DNA of 15,554 nt from an uncultured Acidobacteriota bacterium (GTDB lineage Bacteria > Acidobacteriota > Thermoanaerobaculia > UBA5066 > DATFVB01). The position numbers were made by a program, and so were the translations under genes. The stretch is from positions 1-15,554 of the forward strand of contig CAWEYG010000009.1 in NCBI GenBank assembly GCA_963813155.1, read 5' to 3'. Positions within the stretch are counted from its first letter, which is position 1. Each line of letters begins with the position of its first letter. The notes beneath the pieces were generated by a model. That model saw only the letters and a program-made list of their open reading frames with translations, made no database searches and was not told the origin of the DNA. Positions 1-15,554 of this stretch are shown one piece after another.

Positions 1-324
1 TCGCCGCTGACCAGCACTTCCCTCGCGAGAGACGCTGCGGTGGTCGTTTATGTCCTCGTCTCCCTCGCAGCAACCGGCCTGGCTTTACTCAATGCCGTCA
101 AGCTTGCGATCGTGCGCTTGCCTCCAGGGCGTTTCTATTTCAGCGCCAGCGTCCTGATCATCGCTTCTCTCGTGAATCTTGCCGCCCAGATCGGCATGTC
201 GGCGGTCTCGCTGCCCCATTTGCGGCGAGGGCCCCTCGAGCGCAAGGGACTCTGGGCGATCGGTCTTGCCCTCTTCGGGGTTCTGGTCTTTCCCGTCTAT
301 TACGTCCTGTTCATGCGGACATGA
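1..324 (+). CDS. Small membrane protein, possibly 5'-truncated; C-terminus resembles a PLDc N-terminal-type membrane hairpin
   Basis: Frame is open from base 1 (GTG at 40 is the first start codon). It has three hydrophobic segments, the last being KGLWAIGLALFGVLVFPVYYVLF. Its TGA overlaps the next ATG (ATGA, 321-324). Confidence 0.55.
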   Translation, partial: SPLTSTSLARDAAVVVYVLVSLAATGLALLNAVKLAIVRLPPGRFYFSASVLIIASLVNLAAQIGMSAVSLPHLRRGPLERKGLWAIGLALFGVLVFPVYYVLFMRT

Positions 325-761
325 ACGAATCCGGACCGCTTGGCGGTCTGGATGCGCCGAAAGTGAAGGACGCTCGAGGCGTTCGCGTTTCCGACGCCCG
401 GAAGCTGCTCCTGAAGCTCGACGGCGTCGTCGAAGGCACGTCCTACCGGATGCCCTCGTTCCTCGTGAACGGCCGGTTCTTCGCTCGATTCCGCGACGAC
501 GACACGGTCCTCGTCCTGCAGCTCAAGGCGATCGCCGACCGGGACGTTCTGATGGAGATCGATCCGCAGGCGTTCTTTTTCACCGAGCACTACCGGAACT
601 ACCCCGCCGTTCTCATCCGGCTCGCCGAAGTCCGGCGGCCGCTGCTCGAAGATGTCGTCAAGGAAGCGTGGCGGCACGTCTCGACGCTTCCTGCTGCCCG
701 GCCGCGACCGAAACCGGCGCGGCCCCGTGCCCGGAAGCCGCGAAAGCCGAAGCTGAACTAG
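321..761 (+). CDS. MmcQ/YjbR family protein
   Basis: Family-like motifs EGTSYRMPSFLVNGRFFARF and DPQAFFFTEHYRNYPAVLIRL...VKEAW; Arg/Lys/Pro-rich tail. Alternative GTG start at 363. Confidence 0.8.
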   Translation: MNESGPLGGLDAPKVKDARGVRVSDARKLLLKLDGVVEGTSYRMPSFLVNGRFFARFRDDDTVLVLQLKAIADRDVLMEIDPQAFFFTEHYRNYPAVLIRLAEVRRPLLEDVVKEAWRHVSTLPAARPRPKPARPRARKPRKPKLN

Positions 762-2665
762 CGGCCTGTTCTCATCTCCGCCCGACTTTCAGCGGGATCC
801 GGGGTTGGCGCGGGCGCGAGGCAGCCGCCCCTCCTCGTCGCGCAGCCGCCCGTGGGCGCGGCCTCCCAGTTCGCCGCGAGGGCCGCCGCGTCCAGCGAGC
901 CGAGTCCCGTCGTCTGGTCGTAGCCCGCGCCGGAGGAATAGCCGGTGACTCCCGGAACGCTGTTGTCGCCTTCGACGACGTCGTGGAAGACGGCAGTTCC
1001 CCCGTGCGCAAACTGGTTCGCGCCGAGGCGGTAGAGGTTCGGGTTGATGTTGCCCTGGCGCTTGCCCGTCTTCTGGACGATCAGCGCCATGATGCCCGCC
1101 ATCGAAGGCGTCGAGACGGACGTTCCCTCCGCCCCGGAGAGGCCGGACGAAGAGGCGGACGCGCCCTGGACGATGAGGTACGGAACGCTGCCGGCCGCCG
1201 CGAACGAGATGTCCGGCACCTGTCGCCGGCTGCCGGCGGCGATGCCGGGAACCCCCTGCTGCCAGGTGGGCTGCGAAACGAGCGTGCTCGTGCCGCCGCC
1301 GGTCGACCACAGGCCCGAACCGCCGGGCGTCTTTCCGCTTTCGTTCCACGCGGCTTCGGGAATGTAGGACAGCGCGGAGCCGAGCCGCGAGTCGCTGGAG
1401 TCGGCCCAGTACCGGCTCGGGTCGCCGTGGTCGTCGAACTGCGTGCCGCCGACGCAGACGTCGTTGGCCGTCGTGCACAGTCCCGACACGGCCCTTCCCG
1501 ACCCCTCGGCGTCCTCGGCGGTGCTGCAGGCGGATGCGCCGCTGTCCATGGACGCGACGAACACGGTCATTCCCTGGGCCGCGGCCTGGACCCACAGGTT
1601 CTTGTACAGCGCGCTCGCCGCGGTGCCCATCTCGGCCTCGCAGTTTCCGAAGCTGACCGACACGATCGGCGCCAGGTTCTGGTCCACGATGTATTGCGCG
1701 GACAGGTCGATCCCGTCGGTCGCAGCCGTCGAGCCGGAGATGACGAGCTTCACGGCCGCGTTCGGAGCGGTCGCCCCGGACCATTCGACGTCCAGGTCCG
1801 CCTCGAATTCCTCGTACCCGCCGAGGTTTCCGGGCGAAGGCCCATTGCGAACGATCACCGGATCGTTCGCGGGAAGGCCGAACAGTTTCCGAAAAGCCGA
1901 GACGTCCGCGACGGAGATCTCGGTCCGCCCCGCGATCGCGATCGTCACGCCGGCCGCCGTCACGCCCGCCGCGTGCAGCGGCGCGACGCCGTAGATCGTC
2001 GCGAAGTCCTCGGGCGCGAGAGCGTGATCGCCGGAGCCGCCGCCATAAGCGAGGCTTCGGGCAGCGGAGGTTCGATGGCTCATCGGCCTCCGCGAGGCGC
2101 TTCCGAGAGACGCAAGGCCGGCTACCAATCCGGCGATTTCCCGGGGCATCGTCAGGGAATCCAATCGAACGGGGCGCTCGCCCTCGGCGTTCGAGAACGT
2201 ATGGATCTTCGTTCCAAAAGCCGACTCCACTCGCGCGACCGGCCCCGAGACGTTGATCCATCCGCGTCCCCGGCCGATCTCGTCGATCGTGAGCCCCTGC
2301 TGTTCCAGCCAGGCCGCGACTTTCGCGACCTCTTCGTCGGAGATTCCGAATCGCCGCCCGAATTCCGCCGGCGCAAGCCAGCGATGATACTCGGCAGAGG
2401 CAGGGTCCTGCTGGGCTTCCAGGAAACTCTCCAGTCGCGCGTCCGCCTCCGGCGAGCGGGCCAGAACGAGGATCATCCGATCGAGCGGGGCGTCCAGGGC
2501 CGCCGGTCCGAGGTCGACGGCATCGACCGGGACGGCGATCCTCTCCGCGAGACGGACAGAGCTCCCCTTCGAAGACGGCGACGCTGCCGCAGAAGAGCGA
2601 GCGACCGCGGCGCAGGCCGCGACGACGCACAGAACGATTCTCAGCCGGGTCGGCACAGATCTCAT
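758..2665 (-). CDS. Secreted S53 (sedolisin/kumamolisin-like) serine peptidase with pro-domain, 635 aa
   Basis: Signal peptide MRSVPTRLRIVLCVVAACAAVA; pro-domain QDPASAEYHRWLAPAEFGRRFG; catalytic EADLD, oxyanion ASMDSG and nucleophile GTSVSTP; Ca-binding FHDVVEGDN...GYDQTTGLGS. SD-like AAGGGGG precedes ATG 2665, so the 2815 start is unlikely. Confidence 0.93.
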   Translation of the reverse strand: MRSVPTRLRIVLCVVAACAAVARSSAAASPSSKGSSVRLAERIAVPVDAVDLGPAALDAPLDRMILVLARSPEADARLESFLEAQQDPASAEYHRWLAPAEFGRRFGISDEEVAKVAAWLEQQGLTIDEIGRGRGWINVSGPVARVESAFGTKIHTFSNAEGERPVRLDSLTMPREIAGLVAGLASLGSASRRPMSHRTSAARSLAYGGGSGDHALAPEDFATIYGVAPLHAAGVTAAGVTIAIAGRTEISVADVSAFRKLFGLPANDPVIVRNGPSPGNLGGYEEFEADLDVEWSGATAPNAAVKLVISGSTAATDGIDLSAQYIVDQNLAPIVSVSFGNCEAEMGTAASALYKNLWVQAAAQGMTVFVASMDSGASACSTAEDAEGSGRAVSGLCTTANDVCVGGTQFDDHGDPSRYWADSSDSRLGSALSYIPEAAWNESGKTPGGSGLWSTGGGTSTLVSQPTWQQGVPGIAAGSRRQVPDISFAAAGSVPYLIVQGASASSSGLSGAEGTSVSTPSMAGIMALIVQKTGKRQGNINPNLYRLGANQFAHGGTAVFHDVVEGDNSVPGVTGYSSGAGYDQTTGLGSLDAAALAANWEAAPTGGCATRRGGCLAPAPTPDPAESRAEMRTGR

Positions 2666-2845
2666 CGGATTCCCCCTTTGCCGTTCCCGTGAAAGAGCAG
2701 GATCGGGGCCTCCGTGAATGGGCGGTCCCACGGCGGCCAACTCCCGGAGAAACCAGCAGATCGCCGGTCGGGAAGATTCAGGCGAAGGATTCGGCTCCCG
2801 CAGCGGGACAGACATTCTGGAAAGGAGACTCGAGCTTCACTCGAA

Positions 2846-2851
2846 TAGAAT
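2846..2851 (+). promoter_or_regulatory. Candidate -10 box (TAGAAT) for the SRPBCC gene
   Basis: TAGAAT lies 18 nt upstream of ATG 2870, followed by a GGGAGG SD; no clear -35. Confidence 0.4.
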
Positions 2852-2869
2852 CGAGAGCGGGAGGAAACG

Positions 2870-3313
2870 ATGCCCAACACGATCCGGCTTCACCGGGTGC
2901 TCCGGGCCACGCCCGAGAGGGTCTATCGGGCGTTCCTGGACCCCGACGCGATGGCGAAATGGCTTCCGCCGAACGGATTCACCGGCAAGGTCCACCAGAT
3001 CGACGCGAAGGTCGGCGGGACCTACAAGATGTCGTTCACGAATTTCACGAGCGGCAACAGCCACTCGTTCGGCGGGAAATACGTGGAGCTCGTGCCGAAC
3101 GAGCGCATCCGCTACACGGACCACTTCGACGACCCGAACCTCAAGGGCGAGATGCAGGCGACGATCACGCTGAAGAAGGTATCGGTCGGGACCGAGCTCC
3201 AGATCGTGCAGGAAGGCGTCCCGGACATGATCCCCGCCGAGGCCTGCTACCTCGGCTGGCAGGAATCCCTGACGCTCCTGGCGAAGCTCGTCGAGGCCGA
3301 AATCCCCGGTTAG
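2870..3313 (+). CDS. SRPBCC/AHSA1 (START-like) family protein
   Basis: Motifs LHRVLRATPERVYRAFLDPDAMAKWLPP, DAKVGGTYKMSF, YVELVPNERIRYTD and GWQESLTLLAKLVE; strong SD GGGAGG. Confidence 0.92.
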   Translation: MPNTIRLHRVLRATPERVYRAFLDPDAMAKWLPPNGFTGKVHQIDAKVGGTYKMSFTNFTSGNSHSFGGKYVELVPNERIRYTDHFDDPNLKGEMQATITLKKVSVGTELQIVQEGVPDMIPAEACYLGWQESLTLLAKLVEAEIPG

Positions 3314-3329
3314 CGCCCCGGGCCGAGGA

Positions 3330-6486
<3,157 letters not shown>

Positions 6487-6494
<8 letters not shown>

Positions 6495-8275
6495 GCGCGG
6501 CCGAGCGCCTGCCCTTCGCAGCGACCCGGGCCGGCGCCCCCTTCTTTCGGGCCGGGGGCTTTCCCTCCCCCGCTCCGTCGTAGAACGACGACAGCGCCGA
6601 CACGATCCCCCGGGCGACGGACTCCCGATACTTGCGCGTCTGGATGAGCGCGAGGTCTTCCTCGTTGTTCAGGTTGCAGACTTCCACGAGCGCTCGGGCG
6701 GGGACTTCGTTGTAGCGAATCACGGCCGGCACCCACTGGCGGCCGGAGCGGATGACGCTTTCGCGAATCGGCTGAAACGCGTGGACGGGAAGGTTGTCGT
6801 GGCGGAACGCCCCGACGATCTTCTCCGCGAGCCCCCGCGAAACTCCCTCGGCCTCGAGCCTTTCGCGGCGGGAGAACGAGACCCGCGGAGCCTGCCGGTA
6901 TTCCCGGCGCGCCTCGTAGATCGATCCGGACTTTCCGAAAGAGTCCTTCAGGTACTTCTCGCCCGGGATGTAGACCATCGCGCCGCGCACCGAGGGGTGG
7001 AGCGAGTCGGCGTGCAACGAGAGGAACACGACGTGAGCGGCGTCCCCGCCGCCCGAGATGACGGACCGGAGGAGCGAGTTCGAGAGATACCAGCGCAAGT
7101 GCACGCCGGGGACGGTGTCGTCGATGGGGTACGGCGGGCTCGTCATGACGCGGCCGCCGGAGGAAACCGAGAGCCGGTCCCGGTCCGTCGCGCCGGAAAC
7201 CGACGGATCCTCGACCGTGACGACGACGCGCGCGCGCGTGTTCTTCCGCAGGAGCGCCGCCGTGCGCATCGTGATGTCGTAGACGTAGCGCGATTCCGCG
7301 ACGCCCGACACGAGCGCGCCCGTGTCGCGGCCCCCGTGCCCCGGATCGAGGATCACGGTGACGCCCTGGAGATCCGCGGCCTTGAGTCGGTTCACGAACT
7401 GCGCCGCCTCGAGCTTCGAGTGCTCGTACGCGATCCGCTTCGGGTCGTCCGAAGAACGGTAATCCGGCAGGAGATCGTCGACGGGAATCCGGATCTCGTA
7501 CCCGACCGGTATCGCGTGCACGTTCGCGACGCCGCTTCGCTCGGCGATTTTCTGCGCCTCGGCGTTGACCTCTTCGGCGTACACGAGCCCGGTGAACCGG
7601 ACGACGACCGCCGAGTAGAGGGCTTCCCCCTTCTGGAGCCGGTACGACGCGTACGGGCCCTTCGCGTCCTTCCCGAACGAAAGCGGGGGCGGCCCCGTGA
7701 CTTCCTTCGCGACCGCCTCCGCCCGAAACACGGGCAGCAGGAGGTCGATCGGGATCTTCAGCTTCTGGCCCTTTTCGGTCTCGAGCGACGACAGGGCGTT
7801 GGCCTTCTTGATCTTTTCGTAGTTCGCGCCGTCCCCGGTGAACCACTCCGCGATCCGCCAGAGGCTCTCCGGCTCGCCGGAGAGGCCCGCGACCGTGTGC
7901 GTCCAGCCCTCCGAGGACGCGCTGTCCCCCGAAAAGAGCGCCTGCATCGCGATCTTCTTGTAGTTGCCGGACAGCAGCTCGTAAGGAACGCGGAGAAAGA
8001 TCGCCTGCCGGAGGACGTCGCTCTCCTTGTTGAGCGACAGAATCCGCGCTTTCGTGGCCGGATCCTCCGTGAAGCGGCGAACGAAGGCGTTGATACCTTC
8101 CCCGGGCAAGCGGCTTCGCGAAGAGATAGACGAGGTCTCCGCGCGCCATGCCGACCTTCAGCTCGTCCGAAATGACGACCGTTTTGGAAAATTCGGGCTC
8201 TTCCGCCGCGCCGCCCGCGACCGCGAGCGCGCAGAAGGCCAGAACGAGACTAGGCCGCGGCCGGAGGAACCGCAT
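6487..8275 (-). CDS. N-acetylmuramoyl-L-alanine amidase (Amidase_3) with signal peptide and three LysM-like modules; +1 frameshift near 8109
   Basis: Zn-amidase motifs ILDPGHGG, AESRY, FLSLHADS and LVEVCNLNN; LysM-like ESLWRIAEWFTG...IKKAN...GQKLKIP. The signal peptide MRFLRPRPSLVLAFCALAVAGGAA is in the adjacent frame starting at 8275. Confidence 0.88.
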
Positions 8276-9699
8276 CCGTGAAACGCGTCTCCCGTTCGTA
8301 AGCAGCCGCCGCGGCGAACACCGAATCGTCGCGGCCGCGGTCGGCGAGAATCTGAAGCCCGAGGGGCAGGCCCGAAGCCGCCGGGCCCGACGGCACCGAA
8401 ATCGCAGGAAGTCCCGCGAGGGAGGCCGGCGTCGTGAAGATGTCGGAGAGGTACATGGAGACCGGGTCGTCCGCTTTTTCGCCGAACCGGAACGCCGGCC
8501 CGGGAACCGTCGGCGTCACGATCAACGTCGACGCGGGAAAAGGCCTCCCGGAAATCCGCGCGCAGCAGAGCGCGGGCGCGCTCCGCCCGACGGTAATACT
8601 CGTCCGCGTATCCCGCAGAGAGAACGAAGGTCCCCAGGAGAATCCTGCGCTTGACCTCCTCGCCGAATCCGAGTGTCCGCTGTTCCGTGTAGAACTCCTC
8701 CACGGTCGGCATCTCCACTCGCGGCCCGTACCGGATCCCGTCGTAGCGGGCGAGGTTGGAGGACGCTTCGGCATTCGCGACGACGTAGTAGATCGGAATC
8801 GCGTACGGCGCGCGCGGAACGGACGCTTCCCGAACTGTCGCGCCGAGGCTTCGCAGGACGTCGACTGCGCGGGAAAAGTTCTTCTCGACCTCGGGGTCGA
8901 GCTCGCCGTTCACCGCTTCCTTCAGCACCCCGATCTTCATTCCACGGATCCCCTGCCCGACCGCGCCGACGGGATCGCCGACGGGCTCTCGAAGCGATGT
9001 GGAATCGCGAGGATCTGCGCCCGCCATGACGGCGTAGACCCTGGCGGCGTCCTCGACCGAGGTCGCGATCGGCCCGATCTGGTCCAGCGAAGAGGCGAAT
9101 GCGATCAGCCCGTATCTCGAGACCCTGCCGTAAGTGGGCTTGTAGCCCACGACTCCGCAAAGGGCCGCGGGCTGGCGCACGGAGCCGCCCGTGTCCGACC
9201 CGAGAGCCACCGGGACTTCGCGGCCCGCGACCGCGGCGGCACTCCCCCCGGACGAGCCGCCCGGCACTCGCTCGGGATCCCACGGGTTGCGAGTGAGCTG
9301 GAAGGCGGAGTTCTCCGTCGAGGAGCCCATCGCGAATTCGTCGAGGTTCGTCTTGCCCGCGACGACCGCTCCGGCGGCCTTGAGCCGCTCCACGGCCGTC
9401 GCGTCGTAGCCCGGCGAGAAGCCGCGGAGAATCTTCGACGCGCAGGTGGCCGTGTAACCCGAGACCGCCATGTTGTCCTTCACGGCGACGAGTACGCCGG
9501 CGAGCGGAAGGTCTTCCCGGGCGGCCGCCCGGCGGTCCACCTCCCGGGCGTCCGCCAGGACGCGATCCTCCTCGAACGAAAGGAACGCGCGAATGCTCGG
9601 TTCCCGTTCTGCCATGCGCGCGAGCGCCTCGCGCGCGAATTCCTCCGCGGAGTGCCGGCGCGAAGTCACTGCGGCGGCAATCTCGACGATCGAGCTCAC
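8250..9699 (-). CDS. gatA: Asp/Glu-tRNA amidotransferase subunit A; +1 frameshift near 8524 (482 aa when corrected)
   Basis: Motifs VKDN, GKTNLDEFAMGSSTENS, PGGSSGGS, GSDTGGSVRQPA, SSNLARYDGIRYG and EVKRRILLGTF. The C-terminus (TPT..AFRFGEK.DDPVSMYLSDIFT..ASLAGLPAISVP) is in the next frame. GTG start overlaps the gatC stop. Confidence 0.95.
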
Positions 9700-10007
9700 C
9701 GGGCCGGGTCCACCACTCGGGGCACGGGGACGAGGCCATGCACGAGCTGGCCGGCGTTCGCCTCGAGCTCCTGCCGGCCGGTGCCGGCCGTGGGCTCGTC
9801 CAGGCGGAGCGTCGTTTCGGGAGGCAGGGACGGTTCGGGCAGCTCGGAATCCGGAATCTCCCTCAGTTTCTGCACGTGCTCGACGATCCGCTCCATCTGC
9901 GCGCCCCAGCGCCCGAGGCTTCCGGCGTCGATCCGGAGGCGCGCCAGCCGGGCGACGCGCTGGATGCCTTCGGGGGACAGGAAGACATCTTCGGCGTCGC
10001 CTCGCAT
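9696..10007 (-). CDS. gatC: Asp/Glu-tRNA amidotransferase subunit C
   Basis: IQRVARLARL, IVEHVQKL, TLRLDEP and the C-terminal VPVPRVV; ~100 aa, directly upstream of gatA. Start is 10007 or 10016. Confidence 0.85.
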   Translation of the reverse strand: MRGDAEDVFLSPEGIQRVARLARLRIDAGSLGRWGAQMERIVEHVQKLREIPDSELPEPSLPPETTLRLDEPTAGTGRQELEANAGQLVHGLVPVPRVVDPAR

Positions 10008-10014
10008 GGCGCTC

Positions 10015-10024
10015 ATTGTAACCT
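10015..10024. promoter_or_regulatory. Candidate overlapping divergent -10 boxes: TACAAT (-) and TAACCT (+)
   Basis: ATTGTAACCT lies between gatC and the nucleotidyltransferase gene; TACAAT is 7 nt upstream of ATG 10007. Confidence 0.45.
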
Positions 10025-10053
10025 CTTCGCCGCGGAGGAAGACAATTCCGGCA

Positions 10054-11241
10054 ATGAAGAGCCTCGAGAAGATCGTTCGCGAGTTCGCGCGCCGGCGGCC
10101 CGGGAATCCGGTCTACCTCGTGGGCGGCGCCGTGCGCGACCGGTTGCTCGGGCTGCCAGTGTCCGATTTCGATTTCGCCATCGCCCGGGGCGAGGCGGAC
10201 CTCGCGCGCGAGCTCGAGCGGGCCGGCTTCGGACGGGCGGTTCGGATTTCCCCGGAGTCGTCTCCCGTTTCCGTCTGGCGTCTCGCGGGACGCGGTTTGA
10301 CCGCGGACATCGCCCGCTTCGAGAAAGACGGGTCGATCGAGGACGATCTCGCGCGGCGCGATTTCACAGCGAACGCGATCGCGCGGGACGTCGTCTCGGA
10401 GCGCCTCATCGATCCTTTCGGCGGCCGGGCAGACGTTCGTCGGAGACGAGTCCGGATGATCGCGCCGGCCAACCTCGACGCCGACCCGATCCGGATCCTT
10501 CGCGGCTACCGCCTCGCCGCCGCGCTCGGATGGACGATCGCCCCGCGAACCCGCGCGGCGCTCGCGGCGCGATCCGCGACTCTCGCGGGCGAGGCGAAAG
10601 AGCGGATTCGCGCCGAGCTCGTCCGGCTCTTCGGCGCGCGGAAAGCTTCGCGGCCGATCGCCTGGGCTTCAAGCGATGGGGTTCTCGCCGTCTGTCTCGG
10701 CCTGCCGCAAGCCTCGCCGGGAGCTCTCGCACGGTTGCTCTCCCCATTCGACGCGCCTCGCCTCGAGGAAAGTCTGCGATTTCCCTTCCGCCTGGCGACG
10801 TTGATCTTTCGTTCTGGCGCCGCTTCGAATAACGTCGGGACGGATCTCGTGAGCCGCGGCTTTTCGCGATCCGAGGCTTCCGCCGTCGCCACGGGAGGTC
10901 GCTTTCTCGCGGCCGCGTTCTCCGGCGAGACGGCAGTGCGGGTCCTCTTCGAGTTTCGCGAACAGTGGAAGGACCTCCGGGTTCTCCTTCGCCTCGCGGC
11001 GAGAAGCGCGAAAGAAAAGAAGAGGGCGCGCGCGTTCGCGGCTCGCGCCCGGCGGTGCAATTTCGGACCGATCTCCGTCGACGGGCGCGACATCGCCCGC
11101 TGGCTCGCGATTCCGCCGGGGCAACGCCTGGGCCGCGCGCTCGGCCACGCGGCCTTTCTGCATTTCACCGGCGAGGCGCGAACCCGCGCGCAGATCGAGC
11201 GGGCCGTGCGGTCGTTTGACGGGGCGCGGGCGGAGGAGTAA
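10054..11241 (+). CDS. Class II tRNA nucleotidyltransferase (CCA/poly(A) polymerase family), probably CC-adding type, 395 aa
   Basis: Motifs YLVGGAVRDRLLG..SDFDF, EDDLARRDFTANAIA, IDPFGG, DPIRILRGYR and ERIRAEL; C-terminal VDGRDI...IPPGQRLG. ATG 10054 lies within the long 8434-11241 ORF. Confidence 0.9.
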   Translation: MKSLEKIVREFARRRPGNPVYLVGGAVRDRLLGLPVSDFDFAIARGEADLARELERAGFGRAVRISPESSPVSVWRLAGRGLTADIARFEKDGSIEDDLARRDFTANAIARDVVSERLIDPFGGRADVRRRRVRMIAPANLDADPIRILRGYRLAAALGWTIAPRTRAALAARSATLAGEAKERIRAELVRLFGARKASRPIAWASSDGVLAVCLGLPQASPGALARLLSPFDAPRLEESLRFPFRLATLIFRSGAASNNVGTDLVSRGFSRSEASAVATGGRFLAAAFSGETAVRVLFEFREQWKDLRVLLRLAARSAKEKKRARAFAARARRCNFGPISVDGRDIARWLAIPPGQRLGRALGHAAFLHFTGEARTRAQIERAVRSFDGARAEE

Positions 11242-11263
11242 TCTGCCCGGAAGGGAGGGGTGC

Positions 11264-12706
11264 GTGGATCTTTCCGAACTCCTCAAGTTCACCACAAAAA
11301 AAGGCGCGTCGGACCTGCACCTGAAGCCGATGCGGCCGCCCCTGCTGCGGCTGAACGGGAAGATGGTCCCTCTCAAGACCGAACCGATGAGCCCGAAGGT
11401 CCTGGAAGAGATGCTCCTCCCGATCCTGACGCCCGTTCAGCGCGAGAGGCTCGAGCGCGATTTCTCCGTCGACATCGGGTACGGCCTGCAGGGCGTCGCC
11501 CGTTTCCGCTGCAACATTTTCACGCAGCGCGGATCGTACGCGGCCGCGTTCCGCCGCATTCCCTTCACGCTTCCGACGATCGACGAGCTGGAGCTCCCGG
11601 AGGTCCTGAAGAGCTTCGCGCACCTACCCGGCGGCCTCGTCATCGTCACGGGCCCGACCGGCTCGGGAAAATCGACGACGCTCGCCGCGATCATGCGCGA
11701 GATCACCGAGAAGCGCCCGGTGCACATCGTGACGATCGAGGACCCGATCGAGTACCTCCTCTCCGACGGCCTCGCGGCCGTCTCGCAGCGGGAAGTGGGC
11801 ACCGACACGCCCTCGTTCCACGAGGCGCTGCGAAACATGATGCGCCAGGACCCGGACGTCATCATGGTCGGCGAGATGCGCGACTGGGAGACCATGCAGA
11901 CGGCGATCACCGCGGCGGAGACGGGTCACCTCGTCTTTTCGACCCTCCACACGAACAACGCGGCGCAGTCCATCGACCGCCTCATCGACTCCTGCCCGGG
12001 GAACCTCCAGAAACAGGTGCGCGACCAGCTGGCCCTCGTGCTTCGCTCGATCGTTTCCATGAAGCTCGTGGAGCGCGCGGACGGCAAGGGCCTGACGGCC
12101 GTCGTGGAAATCATGATCAACTCGCCGAAGATCGCGAAGCAGGTCGAGCTCGGCGAGACGAAAGACATCCTGGACGAAATCGAGTCTTCGGTGGGCTACT
12201 ACCGGATGCAATCGATGAACCAGTCGCTTCTCGCCCTTCTCGTTCACCAGAAGATCTCGTACGAGAAGGCGATGGAGATTTCGACCGACCCCGAGGACCT
12301 TTCGCTGAAGCTGCGCAAGCTGTTTCCGCAGATCGAGGAATCTTTCCGAGGAGGAAAAATGTCGTTCAACGATTTTTCCATCGTCACCGGGCTCATGGAT
12401 ACCCAGAAGCTCTACGACGAGCAGGAAGAGAAGTGGAAGATGCGGGTCGCCGAGTTCCAGGAGGAAGTCGGCCGCCTTCGCCAGGAAGTCGAGGACCAGC
12501 GCCGGCTCATGGACGCGAAGACGAAGGGCTACGCGGACCTGGAAGCCGAGACCTCGCGGCTGCGCGGAGAGGCGGACCGGATCCAGAAGGACGCCGGCCA
12601 GAAGATCGCGGCCCTCAACGACCGCATCAAACAGCTGAACGCGCAGCTCGCCGACGTCGCGGGCGCGCGCAAGGCCACGGCGAACGAAGGATTTTTCAAG
12701 AGATAA
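11264..12706 (+). CDS. pilT: PilT/PilU family type IV pilus ATPase with C-terminal coiled-coil extension, 480 aa
   Basis: ASDLHL, RFRCNIF.QRG, Walker A GPTGSGKST, TIEDPIE, QREVG.DT, Walker B DPDVIMVGEMRD and His box TGHLVFSTLHT; SD GGGAGG before GTG 11264. Confidence 0.92.
   Translation: MDLSELLKFTTKKGASDLHLKPMRPPLLRLNGKMVPLKTEPMSPKVLEEMLLPILTPVQRERLERDFSVDIGYGLQGVARFRCNIFTQRGSYAAAFRRIPFTLPTIDELELPEVLKSFAHLPGGLVIVTGPTGSGKSTTLAAIMREITEKRPVHIVTIEDPIEYLLSDGLAAVSQREVGTDTPSFHEALRNMMRQDPDVIMVGEMRDWETMQTAITAAETGHLVFSTLHTNNAAQSIDRLIDSCPGNLQKQVRDQLALVLRSIVSMKLVERADGKGLTAVVEIMINSPKIAKQVELGETKDILDEIESSVGYYRMQSMNQSLLALLVHQKISYEKAMEISTDPEDLSLKLRKLFPQIEESFRGGKMSFNDFSIVTGLMDTQKLYDEQEEKWKMRVAEFQEEVGRLRQEVEDQRRLMDAKTKGYADLEAETSRLRGEADRIQKDAGQKIAALNDRIKQLNAQLADVAGARKATANEGFFKR
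12348..12361 (+). promoter_or_regulatory. Internal in-frame ribosome binding site and ATG within the pilT-like gene
   Basis: GAGGAGGAAAAATG; ATG 12359 is in frame (codon 366), at the ATPase/coiled-coil boundary. Confidence 0.55.
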
Positions 12707-12864
12707 GCGCTCGACCCGGGATCGCGGCGTGGCCCCCAGGACGCCGAGCTCGGCACTCGCCCGCTGGCACGGCGCGATCAGTCGGGGTGGAATCAGTCTT
12801 CCGCGCCTCTAGCGTTCGGCGCGAGATCTCGCCTCTCAACTAACCACGAGATTCTTCTTGCGCC

Positions 12865-13380
12865 TCACTCATGGCCTGCGGACGAGCGCCTGCGCCCCGC
12901 GTCCTGGCCCGCCCGATTGGCGCGCTTCTTTCCAGCAAACGTCCGAATGATGAGCCTGCCACGCCCCCTGGATGGCAACGGAACACTCGCCAGGTCGATC
13001 GCAACGGCAATTAGCGCCGCCACATCCGGATGCGCCAGCTGCCGGGCAGCCTCCACGCGGATGAAACGGGCTTGCTTGCCCGATCCCACCAGTAGCCTCT
13101 TCGGGTCGGGCAATTGTGGCCCGTGCATGAGGTACAGACGCACCCCATCCGGACGCGCGGCGGTTGCGACGATCGCATCCATGGGTCGATCCGTCGACGA
13201 ATACGCGATGACGAAGAAGCTGCGGTAGTCGTACACCAGCTCGTTGGCCGTCGGCAGCCGCTTGCGCACGGCAGACCGGACGGAGCGGATGAACCTCTGC
13301 TCCGCGGGATCGAATTTCTCGATGAGCGACCGAAGCTGGGCCTCTGGTGTGCTCTTCGCGTCAACAGAGCTGGCTACCAT
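12865..13380 (-). CDS. DUF1801 (YdhG-like) domain protein, 171 aa
   Basis: RKRLPTANELVYDY, VRLYLMHGPQLPDPKRLLVGSGKQARFI and PDVAALIAVA; SD GGAGG before ATG 13380. Confidence 0.8.
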   Translation of the reverse strand: MVASSVDAKSTPEAQLRSLIEKFDPAEQRFIRSVRSAVRKRLPTANELVYDYRSFFVIAYSSTDRPMDAIVATAARPDGVRLYLMHGPQLPDPKRLLVGSGKQARFIRVEAARQLAHPDVAALIAVAIDLASVPLPSRGRGRLIIRTFAGKKRANRAGQDAGRRRSSAGHE

Positions 13381-13434
13381 TCTGTCCTCCGGGATCTTGT
13401 AAAGGTTGCCGCAAAGGATCCGCCGAATGACACG

Positions 13435-13526
13435 GCTTCCACCTTCGCGTGAAGCTTCGGCGTGGCTTCCCAGCGGCAAGGCCGCGGGCCGTAGCTCGCC
13501 GGCCGTACCTTTGGCGAAGGCGAAGC
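13435..13526. repeat. REP/REPIN-like intergenic inverted repeat
   Basis: Arms GCTTCCACCTTCGCGTGAAGCTTCGGC (13435-13461) and GCCGTACCTTTGGCGAAGGCGAAGC (13502-13526) are imperfect reverse complements around a 40-nt spacer. Confidence 0.6.
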
Positions 13527-13561
13527 TTGTCGCGACGTCAGCCGGGAAACGAGCCGTACGC

Positions 13562-15554
13562 TTATCGGCCGACCGGTCCAATCCTCAGTTCCGTTCCAGG
13601 CACCCAGCAATAATGTCTCCATGCCACCGACTGGAAGTATCTCACCCTCCGCGCCGTCCGCGTGTGCTGCTCGAAATTCCAAAGACGCACGGTCCTGGCG
13701 CGACGTGGTCCTGATGAGTTTCGCCCACCCGATCGGCGATATCCAAGAAGGATCGTAAAATGCGCTGTTTTCCCTATCTCGGGCCCTGGCGGTTGCCAGG
13801 CGCGATGGATAGTCCCGAGTCCCGACATCGGTGCCGAGATTTCGCACTCTGATGCACGACAACCGTCCCAGCTCGAGGTCTGCTGATGATCTCCGCCGCC
13901 ACCATGTTGTACGGATGGTGTCCGAGTCCTCGCCGTTCGCAGCTGCGGCAGCCGATGTTGGTCCCATTCAGCAAACTTCGCCGGAATTCGCAGCTTCGCT
14001 GTCTCCAAATTTCGGCGGAAGGTGGTGGCGGTTGACCCAATAGCGTATTGTAGGTGGTGCCCTCGCATCGGTACACGGTGCCGACTCGTGTGACGATGGC
14101 CTTCCCCATGGGTCGAACCAGACTCGTCGGCGGGAATCTTCTCGCGATGTCGAGTGCGTGACCGCCGCGTCCGGGGTAGACGTCTCGTTCGACTCCCTGG
14201 TTCGCACCTTTATCAGTCAGCCGGGAGGGTCGGAGCATGTTGACGGCTACACCCAGCGCTTGCGCCTCGTCGTGGATCTTAATCAAGGTTTCGCGCTGTT
14301 CACGCGAATACGCGGGAACCATTGAGCGACTTGCCTCGGTGGTGAAGTTGACGCCGCGAAGTATAAGCTGCTTCACCGCGTACTCATCCAGCAGGGCGGG
14401 AATCCGGCCAAGCTTTCCAATGTGTCATTCATCACCACGGCGTGAATGCGGACAGTTTCCGGGTTGTCGATAGCGGCAACAGCGCGCTTCAGTCCAGCGA
14501 GGTTCTGCTCAAAGGCTGCCCCCGGGTTTTTTGATACAGGTCCGGTTCCGGCGAATCGATTGAAAACGTGAGCTCACGCGGTGCCTGAGTTTACCAAGCG
14601 AGGGGCCCTCTCAATGTTGATCAGGTCGCCGTTCGTGCAGATAGCCGTTTTCCTCCAGCGTCATCAAGCTGGCGAAGGTAATTAAGAACTCAGGGTGCGT
14701 CCATGGCTCGCCCGTGCCCAAGATGTTCACTGTCTCAACGTGCCGCGCCGTCGCCAAAAAGCGAGCCCATACCTGAGGTGGCAGCGTGCTCAGACGCACC
14801 GCCCCTTTCTGACCCTCGAACACCTCCTGGTTTCGCTGAGGTGACAGACAGCTCTCTGGTGTGCTGCGCATCATAACAGCCATTTCTCCGGGCAAGAGAT
14901 TGAGCACAGGGCTGTTCAACTTCGCCGCTTTTCCTGAAAGTCGTGACAGATGGTGAACGGAGCAGCAATCCCGGAGCACTCGACCATCACCGGGTCGCTC
15001 TTCCATCTCGCCGGAGAGTCCTGATCAACCTTGAAGGTTGTCGATCTCGACCACGCACATGAAATGGTGACGCTGTGGAAACCTGACTGGTAGTGGTCTC
15101 AGAATTCCAAGACATAGTCAACCAGCACAGTGACTCCTGCGGGGATTGGTGGAGTTCGAAAGTTCGTGTGGAACTTGAATTCGATCTGCTCAACACCACG
15201 AGGGAGCCTGTGGATCCCAACGTCTCTCGACCAATACCATTGCCAGCCGTCCAAGCCGTTTCAGCCTCATACCAGCCCTTAACTAACCACCGCTGATCTC
15301 CCGCCATGACGACACTAGGGTTCCCCTTCCAACGCCGTGCTCTCAGCCGCTTCTGGTCTGGGATAATTTTGGACCACACCTCCACGTCTCGGCAGGGGTT
15401 CCACCGTCGAACTTCTTCATGGCGAGGCAGCACCCAGGGCAGCGATCTGGCACATAGAACTCTCGGTCGCGTGCAGTCGACAGCCGGCTTTCGCTACTCG
15501 CGGGACTACAGGTACAGCGGGCGGGGTTGGAAACCGGGGTTGGTGGCTGCTTCT
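13562..15554 (-). pseudogene. Multiply frameshifted radical SAM/SPASM-domain gene with N-terminal beta-sandwich-like and C-terminal Ig-like domains (pseudogene or read errors; 5' boundary uncertain)
   Basis: Collinear motifs across frames: GWYEAE..LDGWQWYWS, ILGTGEPWTHPEF, ICTNGDLI, LTFSIDS.EPDLYQKTRG, HAVVMNDTLESL, FDPW/KAIVTRVGTVYRCE, EIW..EFRRSLL..GCRSC, IRVRNLGT..RLATARARDRE.SAFYDPSW, HVAPG, YFQ, CWVPGTELRI; TAA at 13562-13564. Confidence 0.75.

Follow-up and report, generated by a model that had tools for sequence, protein, structure and literature searches.

The DNA analysed here (the window) is a whole stretch of 15,554 nucleotides, positions 1 to 15,554 of the forward strand of contig CAWEYG010000009.1 (assembly GCA_963813155.1), from an uncultured Acidobacteriota bacterium (UBA5066; DATFVB01) of the class Thermoanaerobaculia, which is referred to below simply as the class. 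It contains a gene for a PilT/PilU-family ATPase that continues, in the same reading frame, into a long C-terminal tail, and at the junction between the two parts the coding sequence carries a Shine-Dalgarno (SD) sequence followed by an in-frame ATG. Comparison across related genomes makes it quite probable that this one gene gives rise to two products, namely the motor and a free tail of ∼115 amino acids that pairs with the motor's own tail. The features concerned are as follows.

11264 to 12706, plus strand: whole coding sequence of the 480-amino-acid PilT/PilU-family ATPase with its C-terminal tail (P0001), from the frame, its translation and the family match.
11254 to 11258, plus strand: main-start SD sequence, GGAGG, 5 nucleotides before GTG 11264, read directly.
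11270 to 12298, plus strand: PilT/PilU ATPase core, residues 3-345, from TIGR01420, Pfam T2SSE and alignment with solved PilT.
11651 to 11677, plus strand: GPTGSGKST, residues 130-138, taken to be the Walker A loop, invariant in 93/93 aligned homologues.
12348 to 12354, plus strand: internal SD sequence, GAGGAGG, encoded as CGA GGA GGA (R362 G363 G364), read directly and marked by codon enrichment.
12350 to 12379, plus strand: flexible linker that joins the tail to the motor, residues 363-372, with a predicted local distance difference test score (pLDDT) below 50 in the AlphaFold2 model.
12359 to 12361, plus strand: putative internal in-frame start, ATG (M366), a position at which only start-capable codons occur in 194 sequences.
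12359 to 12706, plus strand: predicted second product, the free tail of 115 amino acids (P0002), in the same frame and with the same stop, deduced from the conserved SD sequence and start.
12374 to 12661, plus strand: single uninterrupted long helix, residues 371-466, a predicted parallel coiled coil, from AlphaFold2 and a two-copy model.
12689 to 12703, plus strand: C-terminal GFFKR motif, residues 476-480, from conservation in 93 homologues.

The open frame extends from 11216 to 12706 on the plus strand, and translation from the in-frame GTG at 11264 to the TAA stop at 12704-12706 yields 480 amino acids; the spacing of 5 nucleotides at this main start falls within the 4-6 nucleotides preferred in the genome. 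The NCBIfam model TIGR01420 matches residues 3-345 over positions 2-343 of its 343, with 405.4 bits against a cut-off of 319.1, and Pfam T2SSE matches at 2.2e-46. The stretches DVIMVGEMRD and TGHLVFSTLHTN are present also and conserved among the 93 homologues, and presumably represent, with GPTGSGKST as Walker A, the Walker B, Asp box and His box elements of the family. Solved PilT and PilU chains of 356-402 amino acids align with residues 2-353 only, with E values from 3e-95 to 3e-64; for the examples 5zfq, 6ojx, 2ewv and 3jvu, and PilU 9n32, the alignment takes in the whole of residues 3-350 at 3e-95 to 1e-77, the best values being those of PilT structures 5zfq and 6ojx (3e-95). PilT-like ATPases are the textbook example of single-polypeptide hexameric motors, and AIRNLIRE is the C-terminal-domain motif of the retraction motor PilT in the strict sense; the AIRNLIRE of Geobacter PilT (5zfq) aligns here with KIAKQVEL. 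Going by these matches, the gene most likely encodes a divergent hexameric ATPase of the PilT/PilU family, with predicted activity.

Unlike PilT and PilU, the protein possesses 130 extra C-terminal residues, comprising the linker, the long helix and GFFKR, which the solved chains do not cover, and its length exceeds the ∼340-400 residues usual in the family. An AlphaFold2 model built from 93 homologues (mean pLDDT 79.4) shows the ATPase core to approximately residue 340, followed by two short helices (343-362), the linker, the helix of ∼96 residues and a disordered end (467-478). An initial annotation of the locus had placed the end of the ATPase near codon 365, which is roughly right given a TIGR01420 match to residue 345 and helices to 362, and its statement that canonical PilT and PilU have no such tail agrees with the extent of the solved chains. 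Within the terminal motif, all 93 homologues share G476 and F478, and conservation of F477 and K479 reaches at least 90%. The ending G-F-F-K-R/K is conserved in the window's order, with GIFR, GLFR or no such motif in distant families, and we take it to resemble the short membrane-targeting ends, basic and aromatic in composition, of proteins such as MinD. Searches for a family to which the tail might belong gave sub-threshold coiled-coil noise in Pfam and NCBIfam and generic coiled coils in the PDB, and a search of the ESM Atlas with the tail, where recognition was below its usual level, returned nothing informative.

The internal site lies within the linker. As the initial annotation had read it, the DNA runs GAGGAGG-AAAA-ATG, with the AAAA at 12355-12358 forming a 4-nucleotide spacer, the ATG at 12359 in frame, no stop before it and 115 codons remaining. 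The 3' end of the 16S ribosomal RNA of the genome is GGATCACCTCCTTTCT, and the organism uses SD-led starts. The conservation of the site was examined in 85 loci fetched from 21 families of the class, 82 of which are intact orthologues; the remaining loci (L054, L062 and L091), with broken or truncated frames, were excluded from the class tests, although the SD sequence and start codon are present in all three. Among the 82 orthologues, 73 have, in the 20 nucleotides upstream of the internal start, a run of at least 5 nucleotides matching the complement of the 3' end of the 16S ribosomal RNA, at a spacing of 4 nucleotides in 40, 5 in 23 and 7 in 5. The 4-nucleotide spacing had been regarded as short. 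It appears to be no obstacle, being the commonest at the site itself, and is normal in this genome since it is the third commonest at likely true starts, where GGAGG precedes ATG by 5 nucleotides in 29 cases, 6 in 22 and 4 in 17.

SD-like words occur elsewhere in the gene too, for example before codon 402 in 66/82 orthologues, because the Glu-rich coding sequence of the coiled coil makes them, and for this reason synonymous codons were resampled, being redrawn from each gene's own usage in 300 simulations of the class set. After removal of one sequence containing N (L033), an SD 5-mer was found 3-9 nucleotides before codon 366 in 71/81 orthologues, compared with 21.0 ± 3.7 expected and a maximum of 31 in any simulation (z = 13.5). 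The next unrelated column in the gene has z = 3.7, and the junction is the sole such outlier. The codons responsible are rare ones. Arg at the site is encoded by CGA in 29/51 cases, compared with 4.6% gene-wide, and by AGG in 13, whereas Gly is encoded by GGA in 48/62 cases, compared with 15.2% gene-wide, and never by GGC (0/62), which accounts for 55.4% of Gly codons gene-wide. The same test in a second acidobacterial class, described below, gave 24/33 against 10.9 ± 2.0 expected (highest simulation 17), with the top columns of the gene again at the junction, and there the Gly codon three places before the start is GGA in 26/26 cases, compared with 17.2% gene-wide. Conservation of the internal Met and of the purine-rich SD sequence at synonymous sites was thus found in both classes, beyond what chance codon choice would give.

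The motif is also retained when the encoded residues change. The residues before the Met in the 82 class orthologues include RGG, REG, QGG, EGG, KGG, KEA, TGG, SGG, AGG, DGG and VEG, and these varied contexts still spell GGAGG, GAGGTG or AAGGAG; of 90 unique 18-mers, 75 keep an SD 5-mer, and 58 distinct four-residue contexts are represented. This recurrence across residue contexts and across two classes is a stronger argument than the z-scores, since the resampling ignores relatedness among the sequences. Taken together, the codon comparisons indicate that the SD sequence is kept by codon choice, that is, by selection at the nucleotide level.

The start position itself is equally constrained. 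Across all sets (194 sequences) it is occupied by ATG in 166, GTG in 14 and TTG in 14, and by no other codon, distributed as follows.

Class orthologues (82): ATG 79, GTG 3, TTG 0.
The three excluded class loci: ATG 2, GTG 1, TTG 0.
Second class (33): ATG 32, GTG 1, TTG 0.
Metagenome loci (76): ATG 53, GTG 9, TTG 14.

Where the residue is Leu, the codon is TTG in 14/14 sequences, compared with 4.1% of the 3937 Leu codons in the same frames, and where it is Val the codon is GTG in 14/14, compared with 49.7% of Val codons. The TTG sequences may constitute one clade, although the Pro codon two places further on uses all four synonyms among them. In 113/114 sequences the internal start is followed by one of the residues A, S, P, G, T and V, and a small second residue is common at real N-termini. 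A programmed frameshift was considered as a separate possibility and rejected, since the window's run of A nucleotides is not conserved.

The distribution of the fused gene was examined in several sets. A search with residues 340-480 returned 613 proteins, and among the 120 matches listed most are of 470-485 amino acids, those shorter proteins that were checked derive from short contigs, and the named ones are called PilT and come from Thermoanaerobaculia or Acidobacteriota. Within the class the tail is present in 264/301 genomes and 105/107 genera, one family being mostly without it (3/33), and 82/85 loci are single intact frames of ∼470-490 codons, the other three being truncated or frame-broken elsewhere. 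A profile of 51 tails also recovered a more distant group, which led to the second class; some of its records are titled Candidatus Polarisedimenticolia or -aceae and 'Acidobacteria bacterium Mor1'. In this class 33/35 genome loci are full-length fused genes, with 46-52% protein identity to the window's protein, and these 33 were used in the synonymous test; the remaining two, which were excluded, have short upstream frames, one ending at the contig edge (L110) and the other with 120 open codons (L124). In an even sample of the phylum the tail was found in 60/401 genomes, in 58 of them in frames of at least 473 amino acids and in two in shorter frames (221 and 281 amino acids). Sorting by gene form was possible for 79 of the 80 metagenome loci; the gene is fused in 65, its frame stays open as far as the end of the contig in 13, and one locus, on a contig of 1317 nucleotides (L154), has a stop 196 codons upstream. 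No stop at the junction was seen in any of the 85, 35 and 79 loci of the class, second-class and metagenome sets. The suggestion in the initial annotation that the gene might be a recent fusion of two operon genes is unsupported, because the fused form is found class-wide, in a second class, in the phylum sample and in metagenomes; judged by this distribution, the fusion is old. Unpublished genomes contribute 2/82 class orthologues (G104, locus L010, and G004, locus L018), five of the genomes in the class tail tally (G104, G004, G179, G175 and G135) and one in the phylum sample (G004), and no claim depends solely on them.

The tail was also sought as a stand-alone gene, by comparing the profile of 51 tails with 1.84 billion representative sequences, which gave 349 matches at E ≤ 1e-3. 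Among the 150 matches listed, approximately 30 entries of 98-122 amino acids start exactly at the internal Met. Ten of these short entries were looked up; each derives from one contig, of 500-9111 nucleotides, and 8/10 are the sole member of their cluster, while the entry from the contig of 9111 nucleotides (P0132) has a best relative that is 93% identical. The short entries were rejected as separate genes, and are most probably cut gene calls on small contigs, because they come from tiny single contigs and because the loci of the divergent group continue into the PilT frame (33/35). No true stand-alone tail gene was found among the matches examined.

The heptads that the initial annotation had noticed in the tail are reflected in structure prediction. 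A model of two copies of the tail scored 0.44, compared with 0.00 for the best of three controls; the mark for this score is reached by 20/30 proteins solved as one-chain pairs and by 1/23 solved as single chains, counts that hold only roughly for this case because an alignment prepared for this analysis was used. The two-copy runs showed at least 95% contact agreement, with a partner pLDDT of at least 83, and the predicted contacts between the tails run from residue i to residue i in an a/d heptad pattern over tail residues 12-104, i.e. parallel and in register. The model supports the formation of a parallel in-register dimer by the tail. A free coiled-coil isoform that co-assembles with the motor, as first suggested, would be consistent with this predicted pairing, and the part of that suggestion which made it a scaffold, localiser or inhibitor stands as a proposal.

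Several observations weigh against a second product, or reduce the force of the evidence for one. The messenger RNA around the internal start is predicted to be as folded as the rest of the gene (-8.88 compared with -9.29 kcal/mol, median rank 0.48); the corresponding value for the main start, -7.45, rests on uncertain start assignments. A consensus scan of positions 10900-13000 revealed no promoter- or terminator-like site, and the sequencing runs listed as containing this stretch include none of RNA. Approximately a tenth of the class orthologues have a weak motif only, consisting of GGGGGAG forms in part of one family (f5) together with L076 and L092. In the window's order R362, G363, G364 and M366 are conserved as residues, in 94-97 of 97 sequences, and part of the signal there is therefore at the amino-acid level. 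Related genomes are non-independent, by which the z-scores are inflated, and some sequences may be shared between the metagenome set and the genome sets. The neighbours of the gene, which are housekeeping genes, differ between the classes, and the role of this PilT paralogue is not indicated by its context. Finally, the existence of the short product is deduced from sequence comparison and its co-assembly with the motor from modelling, and since coiled coils resemble many solved structures the success of the two-copy model may be partly memory.

Explanations other than a second start were weighed against the same data. An SD-like motif could feasibly act as a translational pause, allowing time for folding or hexamer formation by the motor ahead of tail synthesis, with no second protein produced. 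The position of the motif exactly at the domain boundary, the disordered linker and the synonymous constraint fit such a pause as well as they fit a start. A pause, however, needs no start codon 4-7 nucleotides downstream, yet ATG, GTG or TTG is found there in every sequence and Leu is always TTG, and it leaves the N-terminus-like second residue unexplained; pausing induced by SD sequences has, moreover, been questioned as an artefact of profiling. A pause is accordingly considered improbable. It is a good deal less probable still that the site is a relic of the old fusion, or a by-product of constraint on an R-G-G-x-M protein sequence, with no present role in translation. The residue conservation in the window's order would be in keeping with this, as would the ease with which the Glu/Lys-rich coiled coil yields SD-like words, as before codon 402. 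Those other words, however, are explained by the amino acids and preferred codons (z < 4), whereas the junction needs rare codons, and across families the residues vary while the nucleotide motif stays. The motif is kept, besides, in two classes at ∼50% protein identity, far beyond neutral synonymous retention.

Synonymous constraint by itself is silent on what reads the sequence, and the purine-rich stretch might instead be another kind of RNA element, such as a site that is bound by a small RNA or regulatory protein or at which the transcript is processed, with the Met conserved for the sake of the protein. Against this, every conserved word, including the GGT variants that spell GAGGTG, is complementary to the 3' end of the genome's 16S ribosomal RNA, the distance to a start-capable codon stays within 4-7 nucleotides, and the window showed no Rfam match and no local structure signal; such an element seems highly unlikely. 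The least credible explanation, with a probability that is close to negligible, is that two adjacent genes were misjoined by an assembly error or that the open frame is an artefact. The same assembly does contain a 95% identical copy of the gene, on contig C3, that carries indels of +1, -3 and -1, although none is at the junction, and 180 genome and metagenome loci have a single long frame. Contigs from three other soil runs bridge positions 12340-12365 gap-free, the sole indel listed being at 11217, and in two of these runs the contigs carry a K365-to-D variant with the SD sequence unchanged. An assembly artefact at the junction is excluded because these contigs bridge it gap-free, and no stop or indel of the sort that would split two ordinary genes was seen there in them.

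The translation of a free tail from the internal start, in addition to the full-length motor, remains the preferred explanation of the conserved site, since the pause, the relic and the other RNA element each leave unaccounted for either the restriction to start codons or the synonymous constraint. If this is correct, ribosomes would initiate on one messenger RNA both at GTG 11264 and at codon 366, giving the 480-amino-acid motor and a ∼115-amino-acid tail identical to the motor's own. The free tail would then pair, parallel and in register, with the tails borne by the full-length hexamer to form mixed motor-tail assemblies. It could serve there as a stalk, a scaffold or a regulator, or it might compete for the motors' tails and so keep motors from becoming linked through them. 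The logic would be akin to that of SctQ/SpaO, with its short isoforms, or of endolysins built from two polypeptides. A further step, in which the six tails would each be paired with a free copy, would make this a two-subunit machine from a single open reading frame, the first in the PilT/GspE/VirB11-type secretion superfamily; this is offered tentatively, and is considered rather doubtful.

In-frame starts inside genes are already known from other systems. In the SctQ family of type III secretion sorting platforms (YscQ, SpaO, HrcQ) an internal in-frame start is reported to give a short C-terminal isoform that acts with the long one (PMC4295842, PMC8553256), and in SpaO a long form and a short form consisting of the C-terminal 101 residues are reported to be made from one gene (PMC13059759). 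The likeness is that the short product is the C-terminal part of the long one; unlike the present case, SctQ belongs to an unrelated family with a different fold and a different machine, and its isoforms have been detected experimentally, whereas the products of the PilT-tail gene are deduced from sequence conservation. Two-polypeptide endolysins are encoded by in-frame overlapping open reading frames with a shared stop, and their C-terminal polypeptide can multimerise with the full-length enzyme (PMC9430671), although these are phage lysis enzymes with a cell-wall-binding C-terminal part as opposed to a cellular ATPase with a coiled-coil tail. At internal starts in Escherichia coli, among them those in infB (IF2) and arcB (ArcB-C), the start codon (AUG, GUG or UUG) follows an SD-like sequence; site conservation and a local rise in conservation at synonymous positions are taken there as evidence, and one scenario is that C-terminal isoforms join the multimer of the primary protein (bioRxiv 10.1101/520783). 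The E. coli sites were mapped by retapamulin ribosome profiling, whereas the PilT site is known here from sequence. A full-text literature search, which had subscription journals and supplements outside its scope, listed no paper on a PilT that has either a coiled-coil tail or an internal start, and this PilT architecture appears to be new.

The main start of the relatives presents a different picture from the internal one. An SD 5-mer is found there in just 22/112 orthologues, and 21/80 class loci (L015-L023, L025-L032, L034-L036 and L038) have a perfect TATAAT approximately 9 nucleotides before the aligned first codon, which is TTG except in L032, where it is CTG, without an SD sequence. The arrangement suggests that in these loci the full-length messenger RNA is leaderless or nearly so. 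Given a main start that mostly lacks an SD sequence, together with this leaderless pattern, the internal start may be stronger than the main start in many relatives.

With regard to genomic context, the window's genome encodes 10 members of the TIGR01420 family above the cut-off, including this one, and no pilus genes were found among the neighbours within the 15.5-kb window. These neighbours include a PolyA_pol-domain gene, ThiC and a pro-kumamolisin-like gene, and in other loci MutS2-like and SpoIID/SPOR genes are found. The gene immediately upstream (8434-11241, plus strand) ends 22 nucleotides before the PilT start; its 935-codon frame has a PolyA_pol head and RNA-binding domains at residues 560-743, and the first ∼550 residues are without a Pfam match. 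Further upstream, at 5092-8275, frames of 1027 amino acids (plus strand) and 1052 amino acids (minus strand) overlap on opposite strands, both without a Pfam match.

Some duplication was also seen within the assembly. The window contig (C9), compared over positions 371-12715, constitutes a second copy, 92-95% identical, of positions 304345-317668 of a 1-Mb contig of the same assembly (G000:C3), and is probably a co-binned strain variant. The gene copy on C3 is called as a protein of 391 amino acids (P0019), and its junction sequence is identical. A stretch of ∼205 nucleotides directly after the stop of the PilT gene (12708-12916) recurs in inverted orientation, with 87-88% identity, on contigs C13 (7283-7494) and C2 (871591-871795), and this repeat showed no Rfam or tRNA match. 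The same two contigs carry tandem pairs of PilT-family genes with near-equal scores (C2:283937-286035 and C13:10405-12503), which may be a further case of a contig present as a duplicate or variant.

A PilT paralogue found throughout a lineage, with a stalk of its own and a probable in-gene product, would represent a new architecture for this family of motors. It would also be a bacterial 'gene within a gene' for which the comparative support, in the form of ∼190 natural sequence variants, is unusually strong. It reveals a gap in annotation also, in that the ∼115-amino-acid product is unannotated in complete genes and is encountered in databases just as short entries from small contigs. Should the two-subunit arrangement prove to be true, the motor would bear long two-stranded stalks, with a basic-aromatic GFFKR tip that could anchor or position it, a partner or the membrane being examples of possible sites. 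In those relatives in which the main start lacks an SD sequence and follows a TATAAT box, the free tail could then even be the more abundant product, and might determine how active the motor is or where it is located.

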